Positions 717 to 20,496 are shown, numbered from the stretch's first letter. The stretch: 32,000 nucleotides of DNA from Candidatus Thorarchaeota archaeon (GCA_048882505.1 JBHLRO010000002.1:120001-152000), one strand, 5' to 3'. Notes: generated by a model not told the origin, from the sequence alone. A program made the numbers and translations.

Positions 717-1193
717 TCACGGCCCCATCATTGTAAACCTAGACCCAAATACATAGAATAGGATGTAAACCATTATAAGAATGCCAGATATTGCCATTAT
801 GATGTACATGGGATTTTTCATGAAGAATTGAGGTCCTGACATGCCCATACCCATCCTTCTCCTCCTCCTTTCTACTCTCCTATAAGAGGGCCGATATGAA
901 TTAGGTTCGAAGGTGGAGATAGGTTCGGATTCAATAGTCCGCGTAGTGGAGGCTGTCCTAGTAATTGCGGGTGTCTCAGTATTGACTTCTCCTCTTAATA
1001 CTCTCTTGAAAGAAATCGGAATTTCGGGAAACCATTCGAATGGTGTATCGCAATAGGGACATTTATTTACCCCAGCTTGGAAAGATTGCCTGATTGAGTC
1101 CAAACAATATTTTCTTCCACATTCGGGGCAAGACGCACCCTCTATCTGTTCATGATGGCTTGTTTCACACAATCCACAATAATATTTAGCCAC
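717..1193 (-). CDS. RING-like (C4C4-type) zinc-finger protein with C-terminal transmembrane anchor
   Basis: N-terminus has C-x2-C-x12-C-x2-C-x4-C-x2-S-x11-C-x2-C. It is followed by a Thr/Ser/Pro linker, an Arg-rich patch and a hydrophobic helix PMYIIMAISGILIMVYILFYVFG near the C-terminus. Confidence 0.7.
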   Translation of the reverse strand: MAKYYCGLCETSHHEQIEGASCPECGRKYCLDSIRQSFQAGVNKCPYCDTPFEWFPEIPISFKRVLRGEVNTETPAITRTASTTRTIESEPISTFEPNSYRPSYRRVERRRRRMGMGMSGPQFFMKNPMYIIMAISGILIMVYILFYVFGSRFTMMGP

Positions 1194-1542
1194 CTTTACT
1201 TCCCTCGGATCTAAAAAGTACTCTATATGCCTCCAATGTAATATGCTCCTTAGTACTGGCAGCTAACGCTTTAATGTAGAGTTGGTGGCACCTCGATTAT
1301 AAATACATTATGGTGACAAACAATACTCAATATCAATGAGGTACATTCCTTCTTTAAAAATACGTTATTAAATCGCAACGAATGCAAGTTCAAAGAATAA
1401 TCGGCTAGTTTCTCTTTCTGAGGATATTCGTGTTTACCTGCTTGAGGAAATATCAAATTTTCTAAAAAACGGTATTCTGAATGCAAGTCTGTATTCTCGA
1501 ATTATTTCGAGGACTGTTATGAATGGGAAAAATTGTACCTAA

Positions 1543-1746
1543 TTGTTGCAGTCTCATCAGCCCACACAACGAAATTGGGCTCTATTTACGATAATAGCGG
1601 AACTACTTCGTTTTTTGCCGTATTTGCCATTGATTTTTGGTTTGCATCAAAAACCTGAAGCTCTTATTGGTTTAGCGTTTCCTTTTGCCTTGATTTTTTG
1701 GTTGGGTTGGGCTGCTTTGGTCTCCTTTAAAATAAGAACCAGTTAA
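1543..1746 (+). CDS. Possible small membrane protein or gene remnant (67 aa)
   Basis: Two hydrophobic segments, TTG start, no recognisable family. It sits in an otherwise unexplained AT-rich gap. Confidence 0.3.
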   Translation: MLQSHQPTQRNWALFTIIAELLRFLPYLPLIFGLHQKPEALIGLAFPFALIFWLGWAALVSFKIRTS

Positions 1747-1807: not shown

Positions 1808-3748
1808 CTATTGGCTTGTCTTCATATAGTACTGATATACGTCATTCCAGTCCGAAATGTCGTCTACATCCATATCTTCTCTAATATACAAAAATCGAGC
1901 ATTTCGTAAAGAAAATTTATCCTCTCGTCTCACAATGCCTAAACTATCAATGGTGATAACGATTTGAGGGTCTACGGCAAACCCCCAGCTTTCTTTTAGC
2001 TGTGTAAAACGTCCCCGAGATTCGATATCTGTCCTTAAATCCATTAATTGCGCATTAGGAGGAATCAGTCCATTAGATAGAATAATCTCAGCTAATCTTG
2101 ACCCTGCACGTACATCTAGTCCACGAATCATCCCCAAATTTGTATATCCTTCTTCACGTCTCACAGCATATCTGAGTCCCCATACCCTCAGACGAGCATT
2201 TTCTTGTATGGGAATAATTCCTGTGATTGTCACATCTAAAGTTTCTTTTGGTTTTAGCTTATACCAATGTTTTGACCGTTTTCCTAACTCATATACTCCT
2301 TTCGGGAACTTAACAATGGCGCCTTCATGTTTTGTATCTATAAAGTTATTGTAGGCCCGAATGAGTTCCAAATTATTCTTTGCAAATACTGTTTGAACCT
2401 CACGGATCTCTAATCCATTAATAGGGCCTCGAGCTTTCATTGCAGAAACTAATTGATGACGAATTTGTATTCGATTCTCATACGGTAGGTTAATTGTCTC
2501 GACACCATTTAGGTACAAGACGTCAAATACGACATAAATTGGTCTAACTGACTCCATTCCGTATTTTACGGCTTCATGGAGTTCATAGACATTTAAATAA
2601 CGAGGGCCTTCTACGGTCCATTGCTGTGCGGTGATTTCTCCGTCTAAGATAGCAGAATATGCAGGAATCCGATTTAATAGCTGTGTTATAACCGGGTATT
2701 TGTATGTATAATCCTTTCTTCTTCTAGAAAAACAGCCAATCTTATTTCCAAGTTTATGGATTAATAGTCTCACTCCGTCATATTTTGCTTCTGCGTAAAC
2801 TGGAAATTTCGCTTGTTTTTCCCATTTTTCGGCCAGCATCGGCTTGAAAGGGCGAAATGGAAACAACCGTTCGAATTGCTGAAGAACTTCATTATTTTGA
2901 ACTAATTGGGCTATATCGGTAAAAGAATGCATAGAAATAAGGCGTTCAAGCATTTTATACTCAATATCAAAAGCTTTTGAGAATGCACGAACTAAACTCG
3001 ATGTTCTTGATATCTGGTCATGAAACCTGTTTACTTGGGAAGCTAGAAAGAAGACTTCGATTTTTCCCATCTGTTCCAAGAGTTCAGAGAAAACTGCCAT
3101 TTTAATTGAAGTTTTTGAGTCTTCAGCCAAGGCATCACCGACTGCTAAAACCTCAGCGGTCGTTAAATTTCCCCGTTCCTTGTTGATGAATGACGCTACA
3201 GCCGCTGGCCATTCCCCGTATAGTTCTCCTAGCCTTCTTCTTTCTATTTCAGTCGTGGTTGCTTCGATGTTTACTCGCTTCAGTGCTTGCTCAAAACGCG
3301 TACGTCCTATTCCCATCCGGTTGAAACTCGTTTCTCCCTCTAAAATACTAATCTTCTGTGTTAACGTTAAGCCATTATCATGCTTTAAGTACCATTCTAA
3401 CCGTTCGTCGGTATTTTTAAGATGTGGATAGTTTAGATTGAAGAATTTACGGAATGTAAATGCTTTATTCTTGTACGGCGTAAGTATGTCCCGACAAATC
3501 GCATAAAAGCTTACTGAAGATAAATCGGTAAATGAAAGCGTCTGATTTTTTTTGAGAGCCTGAATAATCACGTATGCGAAATGCAATGGGAGTTGATAGG
3601 AATTTGCTACTTCGAAATATGAATTGAGATCCAGTTCCTTTAGATTGGTGATTTGTTTAATCTCTGCTTGTAAATTGGCAAATTCCTCATCCGATTCAAT
3701 AACGGATCTTTCATATGAAGTAAGAATCATTTTGGCATTTATTCCCAA
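1808..3748 (-). CDS. lig: ATP-dependent DNA ligase, divergent paralog (DBD + adenylation + OB domains)
   Basis: Motif I EAKYDGVR, III ILDGEI, IIIa YVVFDVLYLNG, IV EGAIVK, V WYKLKP, and a motif VI-like SLRNARFLYIREDM. A DBD-like helical region (RMGIGR...LTTAEV...) is present. The start is TTG 3748 or ATG 3730. Confidence 0.9.
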   Translation of the reverse strand: MGINAKMILTSYERSVIESDEEFANLQAEIKQITNLKELDLNSYFEVANSYQLPLHFAYVIIQALKKNQTLSFTDLSSVSFYAICRDILTPYKNKAFTFRKFFNLNYPHLKNTDERLEWYLKHDNGLTLTQKISILEGETSFNRMGIGRTRFEQALKRVNIEATTTEIERRRLGELYGEWPAAVASFINKERGNLTTAEVLAVGDALAEDSKTSIKMAVFSELLEQMGKIEVFFLASQVNRFHDQISRTSSLVRAFSKAFDIEYKMLERLISMHSFTDIAQLVQNNEVLQQFERLFPFRPFKPMLAEKWEKQAKFPVYAEAKYDGVRLLIHKLGNKIGCFSRRRKDYTYKYPVITQLLNRIPAYSAILDGEITAQQWTVEGPRYLNVYELHEAVKYGMESVRPIYVVFDVLYLNGVETINLPYENRIQIRHQLVSAMKARGPINGLEIREVQTVFAKNNLELIRAYNNFIDTKHEGAIVKFPKGVYELGKRSKHWYKLKPKETLDVTITGIIPIQENARLRVWGLRYAVRREEGYTNLGMIRGLDVRAGSRLAEIILSNGLIPPNAQLMDLRTDIESRGRFTQLKESWGFAVDPQIVITIDSLGIVRREDKFSLRNARFLYIREDMDVDDISDWNDVYQYYMKTSQ

Positions 3749-4848
3749 AACTTGGCCGGAAACTGATGATCGCTGGGTTGCGTAGGATCCGGACGTATCA
3801 TTCCATTATCATCGAACATAATTTTTACCGGGAAGTCTAATGTATGACACACTTTGGAGCGCGCATTAATCACGGTAATTTTCTCACGATATTGGGATCC
3901 CCAGATCTCAGCTTGCGCTTTAGACGCCATAGACATTTCTGAGATATGTAATGCTACCTCACTGGTATGAAACAACGCCTCGCCACCTTGTGGCTGTCCA
4001 GTGTCCTTAACCTGACCTATAACAACACAGGTTATCCCTTTTTCGTGGTTATAGGTTTTTAACGCATTAAGATTATCTACAGTGTTTAATTTTGACGGAT
4101 CCAACATATTTATTGAATCTATGATGGTAAATCGGCATTCTAACTCCTCAACAGCGTATCGATAATCCCGGATAAATTCCTCCCAGCTTTTCCCTTTATG
4201 ATATTGATTCGGGATCACAATGTACATATCATCATATTTCTGCCTGAATTTCTTTTCTGATAGTCCTGAAATTATTTCAGCTATTTTCAAGAACCGAGAG
4301 AACAAATCATTTCTGCCAGACCCTTTATCGTCAAAAAATCCTTCCTCTGCCACAACATAGGCCGTTTTGATATCATTCATGACTGCATGGACTATCATTT
4401 CCAATGCAGATCTGGTTTTGCCACTATAAGCGGGTCCAGTGAGTGTACAGGTACAGCCTTTTGGGATCCCCTCCAAGGGCATATTATCATCGTTCAAAAA
4501 CAGTTTAGCATAAAGTGGATGAACATTCAGCCCTTCTTGAGCGACTATCCCCCTTTCCAAGGTTTTTGGCAGTATAATATCATGGGGAACCGCTTCCACG
4601 ATTTCTTCGGTCTGTTGGAATGGACTCGAACTGTCCCATTGGCCTGGCATTGCTCCAGCACTCATCATTGACTGCATCGTTTGCATCATTTGTGTCATTA
4701 AAGCCATCTGGTCAGGAATTCCGGAGGGGGCTTGAGGGGGTGAAACCTGAGGGATTTCCTCGGTTGAACCTGGAGGATAAGACGAATCAGGTATAGTATC
4801 TTCTTCAGTTTTTTCATCAAAAAACGATGCTTTCTTTTTCTTTGCCAT
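3739..4848 (-). CDS. RecA-superfamily KaiC-domain (aRadC-like) ATPase with disordered N-terminal extension
   Basis: Walker A GPAYSGKT, catalytic EE (VVAEE), Walker B TIIDS, and GQ..GGEALFH. The C-terminal insert pattern resembles AF_0795-type single-domain KaiC proteins. The first ~85 aa are low-complexity. Confidence 0.8.
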   Translation of the reverse strand: MAKKKKASFFDEKTEEDTIPDSSYPPGSTEEIPQVSPPQAPSGIPDQMALMTQMMQTMQSMMSAGAMPGQWDSSSPFQQTEEIVEAVPHDIILPKTLERGIVAQEGLNVHPLYAKLFLNDDNMPLEGIPKGCTCTLTGPAYSGKTRSALEMIVHAVMNDIKTAYVVAEEGFFDDKGSGRNDLFSRFLKIAEIISGLSEKKFRQKYDDMYIVIPNQYHKGKSWEEFIRDYRYAVEELECRFTIIDSINMLDPSKLNTVDNLNALKTYNHEKGITCVVIGQVKDTGQPQGGEALFHTSEVALHISEMSMASKAQAEIWGSQYREKITVINARSKVCHTLDFPVKIMFDDNGMIRPDPTQPSDHQFPAKFWE

Positions 4849-15588: not shown

Positions 15589-16851
15589 ATGGCTACAAGA
15601 TTCGATCCGAAAGAGTATTCTCGGCAGCGTATTTTAACCCTCTGTGCCAGGTACCTCCCCAAGGATCTAATTGGTATCAACGTAGGACGGAAAGGATTTC
15701 GTCTTGCGGACAGTATGGTTACTCTAATTGAGCTGTCCGAAGATATTGTAGCAAAAGCCCAGGAACTAGAAGAGATTATTCCTGATTCCACAGCCATTGT
15801 ATTTCGCTATGGAGTAGCGCTTCGAAATATCTTTCAGAATGTAGAGGATTACTTAACCGTATCGCAGCTAAAGTCTTATTCTCGACGGGGTCGCCGTAAA
15901 GAGCTAGGGATTACAGAGTTTGATCTAAAAAAAGTAGAATATGCTTTGAAACGGAGTCCAGAACCTCCCGTGAAGACACAGAAGGATGAAAAACTAGTTA
16001 AGGACGCCCAAAAAACTTATCAAAAATTATTACAAGAAGAAAAGTATCAGCTTATACTAGAGGATGTCCTGATTAAACAAGATCTCTTTGTTGTGGACGA
16101 TTCAACAGGGAAAAAGTTCTTTAAAACTGTTAATCGTTTGATAAGCCGCTTAAAGGACAAAACCCAAGAAAAAGAACAGACTTTAGAGAACCTGGAGGCC
16201 AATCATAAAGAAATCAGACAGCTAGAAGATCAGATAACCAAAATTCAATCTCAGCTACCTGGGCTTAAGCGTCAATTGGAGGAATTTCGTCAAGAACGGG
16301 GAGTATTTGATGCTCTAGAGGAAAAAGAACGTCTTTTGGCTTCCCCTCTGCTCTCATTATTCTTGAAAATAATAACGAATAGTCTTGAGCGTTATGTGAA
16401 ATGGGTTGAACGCAGAGAGCAACGTATCGTGGAAAACAAGGATGCTTTCATGGGAATGATACTCGAACCAAGTAAATTCAATGGATTAAACGAAGAATTG
16501 TGGAGGGAAATCGTATATATTATCGAGAATAATGGAATTGACTTGCTACATAACAAGGATTGGTTTGAATTCAATAAAACAGAAGAGCTCAGGACATTCA
16601 TAACTAGAAAAGATGTCCTTCAGGATTTTGCCCGATTACGTGAAATCGAGATCCAACTTGATGAAATTGAAAACCAATTGCAAAAAGATCCACAGTATCT
16701 ATCTTTGATCGAGCAGCTTAATGATTATGATGAACAAACCATGAGATTGGAACGATTACAGCAAGAGATTTCAAACATGACCGAATACATAGGTATTCTC
16801 TCCCAGGAGTTGGCAGAGGTGGAAGATGAAGTTGTAAGGACTTTGGATTAA
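15589..16851 (+). CDS. Hypothetical long coiled-coil protein (420 aa)
   Basis: Long ORF with Glu/Gln/Lys/Leu heptad segments flanking a globular middle. GGAG lies upstream, and the start is 35 nt after the wHTH gene. Confidence 0.8.
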   Translation: MATRFDPKEYSRQRILTLCARYLPKDLIGINVGRKGFRLADSMVTLIELSEDIVAKAQELEEIIPDSTAIVFRYGVALRNIFQNVEDYLTVSQLKSYSRRGRRKELGITEFDLKKVEYALKRSPEPPVKTQKDEKLVKDAQKTYQKLLQEEKYQLILEDVLIKQDLFVVDDSTGKKFFKTVNRLISRLKDKTQEKEQTLENLEANHKEIRQLEDQITKIQSQLPGLKRQLEEFRQERGVFDALEEKERLLASPLLSLFLKIITNSLERYVKWVERREQRIVENKDAFMGMILEPSKFNGLNEELWREIVYIIENNGIDLLHNKDWFEFNKTEELRTFITRKDVLQDFARLREIEIQLDEIENQLQKDPQYLSLIEQLNDYDEQTMRLERLQQEISNMTEYIGILSQELAEVEDEVVRTLD

Positions 16852-17618
16852 CGGTTACTAAGAATTTCAGTTAATACTTCGGCAGCGACTGCCTTCTTTT
16901 TGCGTTCAGTCTTCATTTTTTCGATTTGAGATTTCATCCCTGATTCTCCAGCTCCTTCAATTTCTCCACGAACTTTTGCTTGCTCAATTTTTGTATCTAA
17001 GCCCCTTGCATCCTTTTGTAGGTCAACCAACCAACGTTTCGCCTTTCTGGTCTCAGTGGCAGCTTTTTGTTGAACGGAGGATAACTCTGTTGCGTACTCG
17101 TCCCGTAACGATGCATACACTTCCTTGGACAAAGCCTGAGCACGATTTTTCTCCTCGAGCTTTTCGAGCCGCTCTTGCCACTTTTTCTCCTTCTCCGTCA
17201 ATGCTTCCAGTTCGAACGGTTGGAGCTTCAATTCCCCTTTCTCTTTTTGAAGGGCCGAAATCCTGCTTTGAAGCTGGTTGACTTGCTGGTTGGAATCTTC
17301 CTCATCAATTAGGCCAATTTCTACTTTCTTCGAAAGTTCGGAAATCTCCTCCAGCATTTTCTCTAGTTCTTTCTTTATTTGATCATTTCTTCGCCTTGCA
17401 TACAGGTTCTCCACGATTTCATCCGGGATTTTTTCTGCTGCCACAGGAGCAGCGGGGGCTGGCATCCTCGGAGTAACCTGTTGAGGTTGAGGTGCTGATC
17501 TCTCCGCTTCTGCACGTGAGCGGCTCGCTCTCGATCTTACGGGTGTCCCACAGAACCGACAAAACCGAGCTGTGCTACTTATCTGTTTTCCACAATTTAC
17601 ACAGTAGGTATTGGACAT
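16848..17618 (-). CDS. Zinc-ribbon protein with CdvA-like coiled-coil C-terminal region
   Basis: CVNCG...FCRFCG, a Pro/Ala/Gln linker, then helical repeats (KVEIGLIDEE; LEEKNRAQALSKEVYASLRDEY; AKVRGEIEG). AAGGTGG precedes ATG 17618, and the stop overlaps the convergent gene (TTAA). Confidence 0.7.
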   Translation of the reverse strand: MSNTYCVNCGKQISSTARFCRFCGTPVRSRASRSRAEAERSAPQPQQVTPRMPAPAAPVAAEKIPDEIVENLYARRRNDQIKKELEKMLEEISELSKKVEIGLIDEEDSNQQVNQLQSRISALQKEKGELKLQPFELEALTEKEKKWQERLEKLEEKNRAQALSKEVYASLRDEYATELSSVQQKAATETRKAKRWLVDLQKDARGLDTKIEQAKVRGEIEGAGESGMKSQIEKMKTERKKKAVAAEVLTEILSNR

Positions 17619-17846
17619 GAATTCCACCTTTTATGGCTGATGTGATTGAGAAAGACACCCGTTTAACGAATGGTGGTATCTGACATTGGTACGAAGAGTG
17701 TAGATATCTGACATGCTCTTCCACCGTCTGTCTTTGTGTTTACGACGCCCTTTTTAAAGACTTCAGATGAGGAATGAAAATAGTGCTTACATGCGATAAT
17801 TAAGTTATTTGAGGGCCTAATCAGGTTTTTTCCGAGGAAAAGTAAA

Positions 17847-19054: not shown

Positions 19055-19333
19055 ATGAGCGATGAAAAAGAATTGGCCGATCCAGTTTTTCCATTGGGAA
19101 AACCGACAATTGGTTCCGCTGGTAACACAGGGGATTGGCGAACGGAAAAACCCGTCCTAGCAGAAGAAGCTTGCACCAAATGCTACTTTTGCTGGCTAAA
19201 TTGCCCAGAAGATACTATTCGTGTTGATGGTCCAGATGAATATCCGTATGTGGATTATCAATATTGTAAAGGATGTGGGATCTGCGTCGAAGTATGTCCT
19301 AAGGAGAAAGCACTCTGGATGGAGCCAGAGTAG
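19055..19333 (+). CDS. porD: 2-oxoacid:ferredoxin oxidoreductase delta subunit (2x[4Fe-4S])
   Basis: TGDWR..KP plus two CxxCxxCxxxCP motifs. Confidence 0.93.
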   Translation: MSDEKELADPVFPLGKPTIGSAGNTGDWRTEKPVLAEEACTKCYFCWLNCPEDTIRVDGPDEYPYVDYQYCKGCGICVEVCPKEKALWMEPE

Positions 19334-19347
19334 GTGATGAAGGCAAA

Positions 19348-20496
19348 ATGGTGCAATCACTAGAAAAACCTGGTGCAATGAAAACCGAGCTCATGACGGG
19401 AGGAGAGGCCGTAGCTAGAGCGATCAAACTCTCCCGCCCTCAAGTCATCGCAGCCTATCCGATCACTCCACAAACACCCATTGTTGAATCTCTTTCGGAG
19501 ATGGTTGAGTCAGGAGAGCTAGATGCAGAATATATTGCGGTCGAAAGCGAGCATAGTGCCATGGGTGCGTGTATTGGGGCGTCTCTCGGTGGTGTCCGGA
19601 CTGTAACGGCCACTAGCTCCCATGGTTTGCTGTATATGGGCGAATTATGTTTTTGGGCTGGCATGACAAGAGTGCCTATAATCATGCCAGTTGTAAATCG
19701 ATCATTAAACCCGTGGAATATTTGGCCCGATCACCATGACTCAATGGCCTTTCGTGATGCTGGCTGGATTCAATTGTATGCCAAAAACAATCAGGAAGTG
19801 ATGGACCTTACTATCTGCGCCTTTAAAATTGGTGAACATCCGAAAATTTCCATGCCTGTCATGGTGTGCCTAGATGGATTTGTTCTTAGTCATACCTCTG
19901 CTCAGGTCGAAGTGCCTACTCAGAAACAGATCGATGATTTTTTACCTCCGTTTAAGCCATTAGTTTTACTCGATCCTGATGCTCCATTTGCTCATGGCTC
20001 CCTAACAAATGCCGAGGGAATATGGGAACAGAGAATGTCATTGATCGCGGGCTTTGAAAATGCAAGGGTTCTGATTCCCGAAATCTTTGAAGATTATGGC
20101 ATGAAAATAGGGCGCCTCCGACGAGAAATGATTGAAGTAACAGGAAATATCGAAGAAGCAGAAATAGGTATTATGGCCCTTGGAACACTTGGTGAGGAAG
20201 CTGAAAATACATTAGACCTACTATCTGAGAAGGGAGTCAACGCTGTAGTCATTCGTCCACGAGTATTTCGTCCATTCCCTAAAAAAGAACTAACTAGGTA
20301 TTTACGAAAAATCCCGAAGTTACTGGTGATTGATCGGGCTGTTTCATATGGAAACGCTGGACAGCTGGCGATTGAGGTCCAGGCAGAATTGTTCCTTCAG
20401 AAAATAGACCTAGAATTCCATCAAAAGATCTTGGGACTTGGTGGAATGAATGTGACTCACGTAGATATCGCCAAAGAGGTTGAAAGTATTATATGA
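19348..20496 (+). CDS. porA: 2-oxoacid:ferredoxin oxidoreductase alpha subunit
   Basis: AAYPITPQT, VESEHSAM, TATSSHGL, LDGFVLSHT and RVFRPFP. Confidence 0.95.
   Translation: MVQSLEKPGAMKTELMTGGEAVARAIKLSRPQVIAAYPITPQTPIVESLSEMVESGELDAEYIAVESEHSAMGACIGASLGGVRTVTATSSHGLLYMGELCFWAGMTRVPIIMPVVNRSLNPWNIWPDHHDSMAFRDAGWIQLYAKNNQEVMDLTICAFKIGEHPKISMPVMVCLDGFVLSHTSAQVEVPTQKQIDDFLPPFKPLVLLDPDAPFAHGSLTNAEGIWEQRMSLIAGFENARVLIPEIFEDYGMKIGRLRREMIEVTGNIEEAEIGIMALGTLGEEAENTLDLLSEKGVNAVVIRPRVFRPFPKKELTRYLRKIPKLLVIDRAVSYGNAGQLAIEVQAELFLQKIDLEFHQKILGLGGMNVTHVDIAKEVESII

Follow-up and report, generated by a model that had tools for sequence, protein, structure and literature searches.

Large modular repertoires of E3 ligases are regarded as a hallmark of eukaryotes. 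Among eukaryotic membrane-bound ligases, the ER proteins RNF5 and RNF185 combine a canonical C3HC4 RING with two transmembrane (TM) helices. In active RING E3 ligases, a basic linchpin residue after the eighth zinc ligand (C8) locks the E2~Ub conjugate in the closed state. Another type of zinc-binding unit is represented by the retroviral-type CCHC zinc knuckle, C-x2-C-x4-H-x4-C, which is a mononuclear mini-domain. In humans, the members of the RNF183 family (RNF183, RNF186, RNF182, RNF152) are composed of an N-terminal RING and one or two C-terminal TM helices (PMC7313026). In Asgard archaea, a cascade consisting of E1, E2 and RING E3 has been reconstituted in vitro (bioRxiv 10.1101/2023.07.25.550441). 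Asgard RING E3 ligases are already known, and the solid result of the present analysis is a ligand-swapped RING family that has radiated in one Hodarchaeales-type genus; no paper describing this RING variant or its radiation was found in the literature. The smallest member of this genus-specific RING-variant radiation is a protein of 158 amino acids (aa) from a Heimdall/Hodarchaeales-type Asgard archaeon, the gene of which lies in the window, i.e., the whole stretch of 32,000 nucleotides that was analysed.

The closest family by descent is represented by the Asgard and archaeal RING-H2-type fingers (zf-RING_2). The domain described here follows the same spacing, C-x2-C-x12-C-x2-C-x4-[H/C]-x2-[H/S]-x10/11-C-x2-C, and also has the CPxCG knuckle, the central helix and the CPxC motif in common with them. 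It differs from these fingers in a fifth ligand that is Cys rather than His, a Ser at the position of the sixth ligand that is apparently replaced by His13, the loss of the helix Trp, an Asp at the linchpin position, a sub-threshold Pfam score, and the restriction of the subfamily to one genus. The mid-domain spacing C-x2-C-x4-X-x2-X is shared with the NSE1/PHD-type C4HC3 fingers and with the C4C4 finger of CNOT4 (PDB 5hvq, 2ct0, 1ur6), and two of the best local superpositions are those on NSE1 (2.1 Å over 52 columns) and on CNOT4 (Z 4.3, rmsd 2.2 Å over 51 residues). However, the eight ligands of NSE1 and CNOT4 occupy canonical positions, whereas ligand 6 appears to have moved to position 13 in the present domain. 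The likeness to CNOT4 on which the original prediction was built holds as a fold match, but CNOT4 is not the best match. For the proposed grouping of C6, C9 and H13 on one zinc ion, the CCHC knuckle offers a precedent by analogy only, in that a C-x2-C pair and a nearby His bind the same zinc, although in the knuckle this occurs outside any cross-brace.

With regard to overall architecture and size class, the protein resembles the RNF183 family, in which a RING at the cytosolic N-terminus is likewise connected through a linker to a C-terminal membrane anchor, but there is no specific sequence relationship, and the RNF183-type RINGs are canonical C3HC4 domains of animal lysosomal and ER ligases. 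With RNF5 and RNF185, neither of which is among the sequence or fold matches listed, the protein has in common a RING at the N-terminus and a membrane anchor close to the C-terminus. The resemblance to the RNF183 family and to RNF5/RNF185 is one of convergent architecture.

The coding sequence of this tail-anchored RING-like protein extends over positions 717..1193 on the minus strand, with a GTG start at 1193 and a stop at 717-719, and homologs begin at the same N-terminal start residue. In five full-length homologs, with identities of 56-92%, every ligand, the other motif residues and the TM segment are invariant, and the length is kept. The ortholog in a sister species is 94% identical and syntenic, being flanked by a divergent DNA ligase gene and a convergent rpiA gene. 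Comparison of codons 1-60 (the zinc domain) with this ortholog gave a dN/dS of 0.09 based on few substitutions, a test of low power because the sister genomes are approximately 94-96% identical even in intergenic DNA. Taken together, the comparative sequence evidence indicates that ORF 717-1193 is a real gene.

The upstream intergenic region (1194..1532), which is bordered also by a small divergent ORF and is 94% identical to that of the sister species, contains the A/T-rich elements ATATAG and TTTTTAG approximately 20-35 nt before the GTG codon, as read from the sequence, and presumably harbours a promoter of its own for the RING gene. The small divergent ORF (1533-1746, plus strand) encodes a hydrophobic product and is distributed over two frames as a result of single-base indels, which suggests a possible frameshifted gene for a small membrane protein; its counterpart in the sister species is intact and encodes 98 aa (L033 948-1244, minus strand). 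Further upstream, 614 bp from the RING gene and on the same strand, there is a gene for a KaiC/RadA-like ATPase that overlaps with the beginning of a gene for a divergent ATP-dependent DNA ligase (1808-4848, minus strand), and synteny of the ligase gene extends to the sister species. A functional tie between the RING gene and this ATPase/ligase pair is not evident. Beyond the sister species, no conserved neighbours were found and no operon partner can be named; a metagenomic homolog with 68% identity sits among metal-transport genes.

The characteristics of the zinc domain, residues 1-58 (1020..1193, minus strand), were assessed with an AlphaFold2 (AF2) model, Foldseek, the VIA fold search and hhalign. 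The family set was obtained from an exhaustive phmmer search reduced to 38 representatives at 50% identity, which were aligned as A2; these representatives have residues 2-65 in common and are completely different downstream. With the A2 alignment, residues 1-58 were modelled at a pLDDT of 88.9 and a pTM of 0.73. All of the top 50 Foldseek matches in the PDB are RING, U-box or PHD domains with a probability of approximately 1.0, including TRIM37, TRAF6, RING1B, NSE1 and RNF12, the last of these superposing at 2.4 Å over 50 columns. The VIA search, which is independent of Foldseek, ranked PHF7 and APC11 highest (Z 5.8), followed by the p300 RING, Slx1, RNF213, LTN1 and Nse1 (Z 5.2-5.5). Z values of about 5-6 are modest yet normal for a domain of 55 residues, and the list of matches is homogeneous. 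In the Atlas fold search, RING, B-box and PHD clusters were recovered at TM scores of 0.55-0.64, while the leads of the Atlas feature search, all below 0.9, are all of the RING class.

Profile comparisons led in the same direction. Searching the A2 profile against the PDB identified RING1B (1.4e-6), RNF4 (1.7e-6), TRIM21 (7.8e-5) and BRE1 (1.1e-4). When A2 was compared by hhalign with an alignment of the six zf-RING_2 domains encoded by the same genome, a probability of 95.4% and an E value of 1.7e-8 were obtained over 50 columns, with the eight ligand columns in register: C6, C9, C22 and C25 pair with Cys residues of the same number, C30 and S33 with H30 and H33, and C45 and C48 with C44 and C47. 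At the level of the single sequence, the zf-RING_2 model (PF13639, gathering cut-off 27.3 bits) gave a sub-threshold 12.1 bits (E 0.25), the other Pfam matches are sub-threshold as well, and only 7 of the 38 family members are matched by zf-RING_2 at E<=0.1. The hhalign register and the fold matches indicate a divergent offshoot of the Asgard C4H2C2 RINGs rather than two ribbons, and the choice posed by the original prediction between a cross-brace RING and two independent ribbons falls to the former on the combined evidence of the model, the fold searches, the PDB profile and the alignment to the genome's own RINGs. Residues 1-58 are accordingly modelled as a RING-type cross-brace finger, with the two hairpins and the central helix of this fold and with two predicted zinc ions.

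Two other identities were considered and rejected. The TRIP4/ASC-1 finger zf-C2HC5 (PF06221, cut-off 25.8 bits) is attractive because the ligand pattern is C2HC5, which fits formally, but no match in the genome reaches the cut-off and the ORF itself is unmatched. For FYVE domains, in which PI3P binding depends on the motifs WxxD, R(R/K)HHCR and RVC, there are weak matches only and no PI3P-binding motif. Elsewhere in the window, an ORF at 16848-17627 (minus strand) encodes a protein of 259 aa in which a zinc ribbon at the N-terminus (Zn_Ribbon_1, 34 bits) is combined with a linker rich in Pro and Ala and an extended charged region resembling a coiled coil; this zinc-ribbon protein also weakly matches zf-C2HC5, which indicates that the Pfam model is unspecific.

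The zinc-binding residues of the domain are distributed over three motifs: the pair C6-x2-C9, followed after 12 residues by CPECGRKYCLDS (C22, C25, C30, S33) and, after a further 11 residues, by CPYC (C45, C48) with D49 directly behind it. The first knuckle, CGLCETSH (1155..1178, minus strand), contains C6, C9 and H13, of which the last is implicated by family conservation and covariation. The segment CPECGRKYCLDS (1095..1130, minus strand), placed by its register with canonical RINGs, would provide C22 and C25 for site 2 and C30 for site 1 and has S33 at the ligand-6 position, while CPYC (1050..1061, minus strand), recognised by family conservation, would contribute C45 and C48 to site 2 and carries P46 of RING loop 2. 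Measured against the general RING spacing C-x2-C-x(9-39)-C-x(1-3)-H/C-x(2-4)-C/H-x2-C/H-x(4-48)-C-x2-C, seven of the eight canonical ligand positions are filled; the exception is position 6, where Ser33 stands, and the conserved His13 is the probable eighth ligand. The invariant or near-invariant columns of A2 are C6 (37/38), C9 (38/38), H13 (36/38), C22, C25, C30, C45 and C48, giving a C2-H-C5 pattern, whereas Ser33 is present in 33 of 38 members and is replaceable. The C4C4 label taken over from CNOT4 fails, because one ligand is a His at a noncanonical position; the set consists of seven Cys plus His13 (C2HC5), and position 33 is Ser. As the original prediction had read directly from the sequence, Ser stands at the sixth ligand position and Asp at the linchpin; of the two His residues that it offered as substitutes for the missing ligand, His13 is borne out by conservation and covariation, but His14, found in 14 of 38 members, is unconserved.

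The relationship between positions 9, 13 and 33 was followed in the family domains from the genome itself and from 30 loci of the genus. Position 13 is His in all 27 sequences that have Ser, Ala or Gly at position 33 or Asp at position 9, and Tyr, Lys or Arg in all eight sequences having both Cys9 and Cys33; neither of the two sequences with His at position 9 has another His at position 13, and one paralog has Asp at position 33 instead. The sole member of A2 with Cys33 is also the member with Tyr13. These counts overstate independence because the sequences share ancestry and group into a small number of clades. Even so, the pattern supports the view that the three positions are alternatives for one zinc site, as would be expected if a four-ligand site 1 were conserved. 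Site 1 would then be formed by C6, C9, H13 and C30, and site 2, in canonical fashion, by C22, C25, C45 and C48, with His13 probably standing in for the sixth ligand lost at Ser33, a substitution that rests on covariation among related sequences. Alternating sets of site-1 ligands (CCCC, CCHC, C(D)HCC, CHCC, CCCD) are also displayed by the paralogs.

Downstream of the zinc domain, a Thr/Ser/Pro-rich linker (residues 70-119; 837..986, minus strand) is predicted to be disordered (pLDDT <50) and varies among homologs in both length and sequence. It includes an Arg-rich juxtamembrane patch (residues 101-113; 855..893, minus strand), and the net charge over residues 101-127, the 27 residues before the helix, amounts to +8. 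A single C-terminal TM helix follows at residues 127-153 of 158 (735..815, minus strand), with a Kyte-Doolittle peak of 2.65 and a tail of five residues; in the full-length AF2 model, a helix is placed at residues 128-152 with a pLDDT of 83-87. Both the single TM helix near the C-terminus behind an Arg-rich patch and the tail-anchored architecture, as originally proposed, agree with these features, together with a zinc domain that is leaderless, there being no N-terminal hydrophobic leader in the 158-aa protein. Because of the positive-inside rule and the need of the domain for reduced cysteines, the RING side is assigned to the cytoplasm; the protein is thus probably an N-in tail anchor with its zinc domain facing the cytoplasm. 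Just before the TM helix, the motif FFMKNPMY is conserved, with F123, N127 and M129 invariant in homologs. That this motif is better conserved than the linker suggests that the helix does more than anchor the protein.

The distribution of the family is narrow. Among the 22 species-level genomes of the genus, two (its own and that of one sister species) yielded the full-length protein, as did a handful of metagenome sequences, while the His13-type domain subfamily is present in 22 of 22 genomes of the genus with 3-9 copies each. When the phylum was sampled evenly, the subfamily was detected at E<=1e-6 in nine of nine genomes of the genus and in only 1 of approximately 191 others. The His13-type family therefore appears to be essentially confined to one genus, as a recent lineage-specific branch. 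Metagenomic relatives carry the domain together with arrays of LRRs, with TPR repeats or with membrane segments, and some of them are tail-anchored in the same way. The genome itself encodes eight family domains at E<=1.5e-5, including those of a TPR protein, of membrane proteins with a C-terminal finger, of large proteins with an exported domain and TM segments, and of a PCI-like tandem protein; a WD40-TM protein and a UFL1-like protein beside the Ub-E1-E2 cluster on contig 18 are among the more distant relatives. Such combinations of the domain with LRR, TPR, WD40 or membrane modules resemble the way in which RING E3 ligases are built.

The paralogous RING-like domains of the genome are located, by contig, at C37:1111-1485, C1:153324-154139, C14:89481-92174, C2:373110-374984, C20:16759-18147, C11:51889-53130, C1:263771-264919, C18:6390-8189 and C4:47571-49691. 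Their architectures comprise TPR, multi-TM, large exported domain plus TM, PCI-like tandem, UFL1-like, and WD40 plus TM. A membrane RING paralog of the genome that has Ala at the ligand-6 position and a His behind the second Cys also proved to belong to the family.

The genome also encodes a complete ubiquitin-type system, as the original prediction had expected of an Asgard archaeon. In the assembly (4.3 Mb, 94.6% complete), there are three ubiquitin-like genes, four UQ_con matches, five ThiF-type (E1) matches and six zf-RING_2 matches. Three of the UQ_con proteins, on contigs 11, 9 and 18, have the catalytic Cys, and three of the ThiF-type genes lie within the Ub/E2 clusters on the same contigs, so that three ubiquitins, three catalytic E2s, cluster-linked E1s and six canonical RINGs can be counted. 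The nearest homologs of the E2s are labelled Hodarchaeales, Heimdallarchaeota and other Asgard groups. The most canonical E2 (contig 11:19139-19651) keeps the catalytic Cys, the loop 4 Phe (F62 equivalent) and the SPA loop, and has HVN where Asgard and eukaryotic homologs have HPN. The fourth UQ_con protein (contig 11:37144-37902) is a Cys-less UEV in which the fold is followed by a coiled coil, and is similar to the UEV-Vps23 proteins that have been reported from Asgard archaea (10.1101/2023.07.25.550441). The RING gene itself lies on contig 2, away from all Ub clusters, and no Ub, E1 or E2 genes were identified by phmmer with the genome's own proteins in flanks of approximately 1.5 kb around this gene and about 38 related loci of the genus.

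Several readings other than a functional RING protein of the genus can be weighed on these data. That the ORF is a chance frame or a decaying fragment with no functional gene behind it is scarcely conceivable: it has a GTG start, and dN/dS carries little weight beside intergenic DNA that is 94% identical to the sister genome, but homologs down to 56% identity retain the length, all ligands and the TM helix, and the domain is modelled with confidence. It is improbable that this is a membrane-anchored protein unrelated to ubiquitin, carrying either two independent zinc ribbons or a finger of FYVE-like or zf-C2HC5-like type that binds nucleic acids or lipids. Weak Pfam matches to FYVE (17/38), to zf-C2HC5 (12/38, best 1.7e-5) and to several zinc ribbons would fit such a finger, and the spacing C-x2-C-x4-C-x2 is common to FYVE and PHD domains. 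However, the domain is modelled as a cross-brace that contains the central helix of RINGs, no FYVE or ribbon domain occurs among the top structural matches, C22 is preceded by EGAS rather than by the basic R(R/K)HHCR motif, and the zf-C2HC5 model never reaches its cut-off, also matches plain zinc ribbons and is positive in 6 of 14 control genomes. The suggestion of the original prediction that the protein could be a proto-ERAD membrane ligase, which would make it an archaeal forerunner by descent of the ER ligases RNF5 and RNF185, is highly improbable. It draws on the architecture of an N-terminal RING plus a C-terminal TM helix and on the Asgard host, and it fails because of the distribution and the nearest relatives: the full-length protein was found in two of the 22 genomes of the genus and the subfamily is essentially limited to the genus, the nearest solved RINGs are RING1B, RNF4, TRIM21 and BRE1 rather than RNF5-type domains, and the closest relatives are the C4H2C2 RINGs of the same genome. 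Neither orthology with RNF5/RNF185 nor a broad distribution from Asgard archaea to eukaryotes was found. The protein is most probably no ancestor of the eukaryotic ERAD ligases, and the family has no bearing on their descent.

Within the RING interpretation, the main question concerns catalysis, and an even chance may be given to the candidate role of an active E3 ligase at the membrane. The points in its favour are the conservation of Leu8 and Pro46, the ubiquitin system of the genome, the E3-like architectures in the family and, as a precedent, the reconstituted Asgard cascade. Leu8 (C1+2) and Pro46 (C7+1) occupy the two loop positions at which E2s are contacted in solved complexes; the Leu8 column is L, M or F in 36 of 38 members, and Pro46 is kept in 31 of 38. 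The claim that the E2-contacting positions are retained holds for these two residues but not for the equivalent of the central-helix Trp that contacts the E2 in the genome's own canonical RINGs, which is Ser37 here and Ser or Ala in most family members. On the other side, it is possible, if doubtful, that the protein is a non-catalytic RING-like adaptor that has kept the RING fold and lost E2 activation, either tethering a cytoplasmic partner to the membrane or pairing with an active RING in the manner of BARD1, BMI1 or MDMX. Such an adaptor would agree with the loss of the helix Trp, the lack of linkage to Ub genes, the very small size of the protein, in which no substrate-binding module is recognisable among the 158 aa, and the presence in the genome of other membrane RING proteins available for pairing. 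It would also agree with the acidic linchpin, since the residue in column 49 is Asp49 rather than a basic one (D in 22/38 members, basic in 2/38), but in this genome the linchpin carries little weight as an argument, since K or R stands there in only two of the six canonical RINGs and the absence of a basic residue is not diagnostic. The conserved Leu8 and Pro46 on the E2-facing loops and the fusions to LRR, TPR and WD40 modules, which are typical of active E3s, also speak against the adaptor. A complex prediction for the RING domain (A2) with the contig 11 E2 (19139-19651) returned a score of 0.00, which is no evidence either way.

In the most likely mechanism, the zinc domain would bring a charged E2 from one of the ubiquitin-type systems of the genome to the inner side of the membrane. 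The protein would then be a minimal membrane E3, or would supply the RING subunit of such a ligase, and the conserved juxtamembrane and TM segment would select membrane partners. A broader reading, which is tentative and on balance unlikely, is that the genus evolved its own RING-ligase radiation on the His13 site and that the 158-aa member is a minimal membrane E3 marking membrane proteins for ESCRT- or Cdc48/proteasome-dependent turnover; in that case, archaea would have arrived independently at the RNF183/ERAD-type solution.

Here, an archaeon closely related to eukaryotes has diversified a RING variant into LRR, TPR, WD40 and membrane forms on top of its canonical RINGs. The ligand swap would widen the known plasticity of RING zinc sites. 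If the protein is inactive, it would mark a RING-derived adaptor family; if it is an active E3, substrate-specific and membrane-localised ubiquitylation would already have been explored in Asgard lineages.
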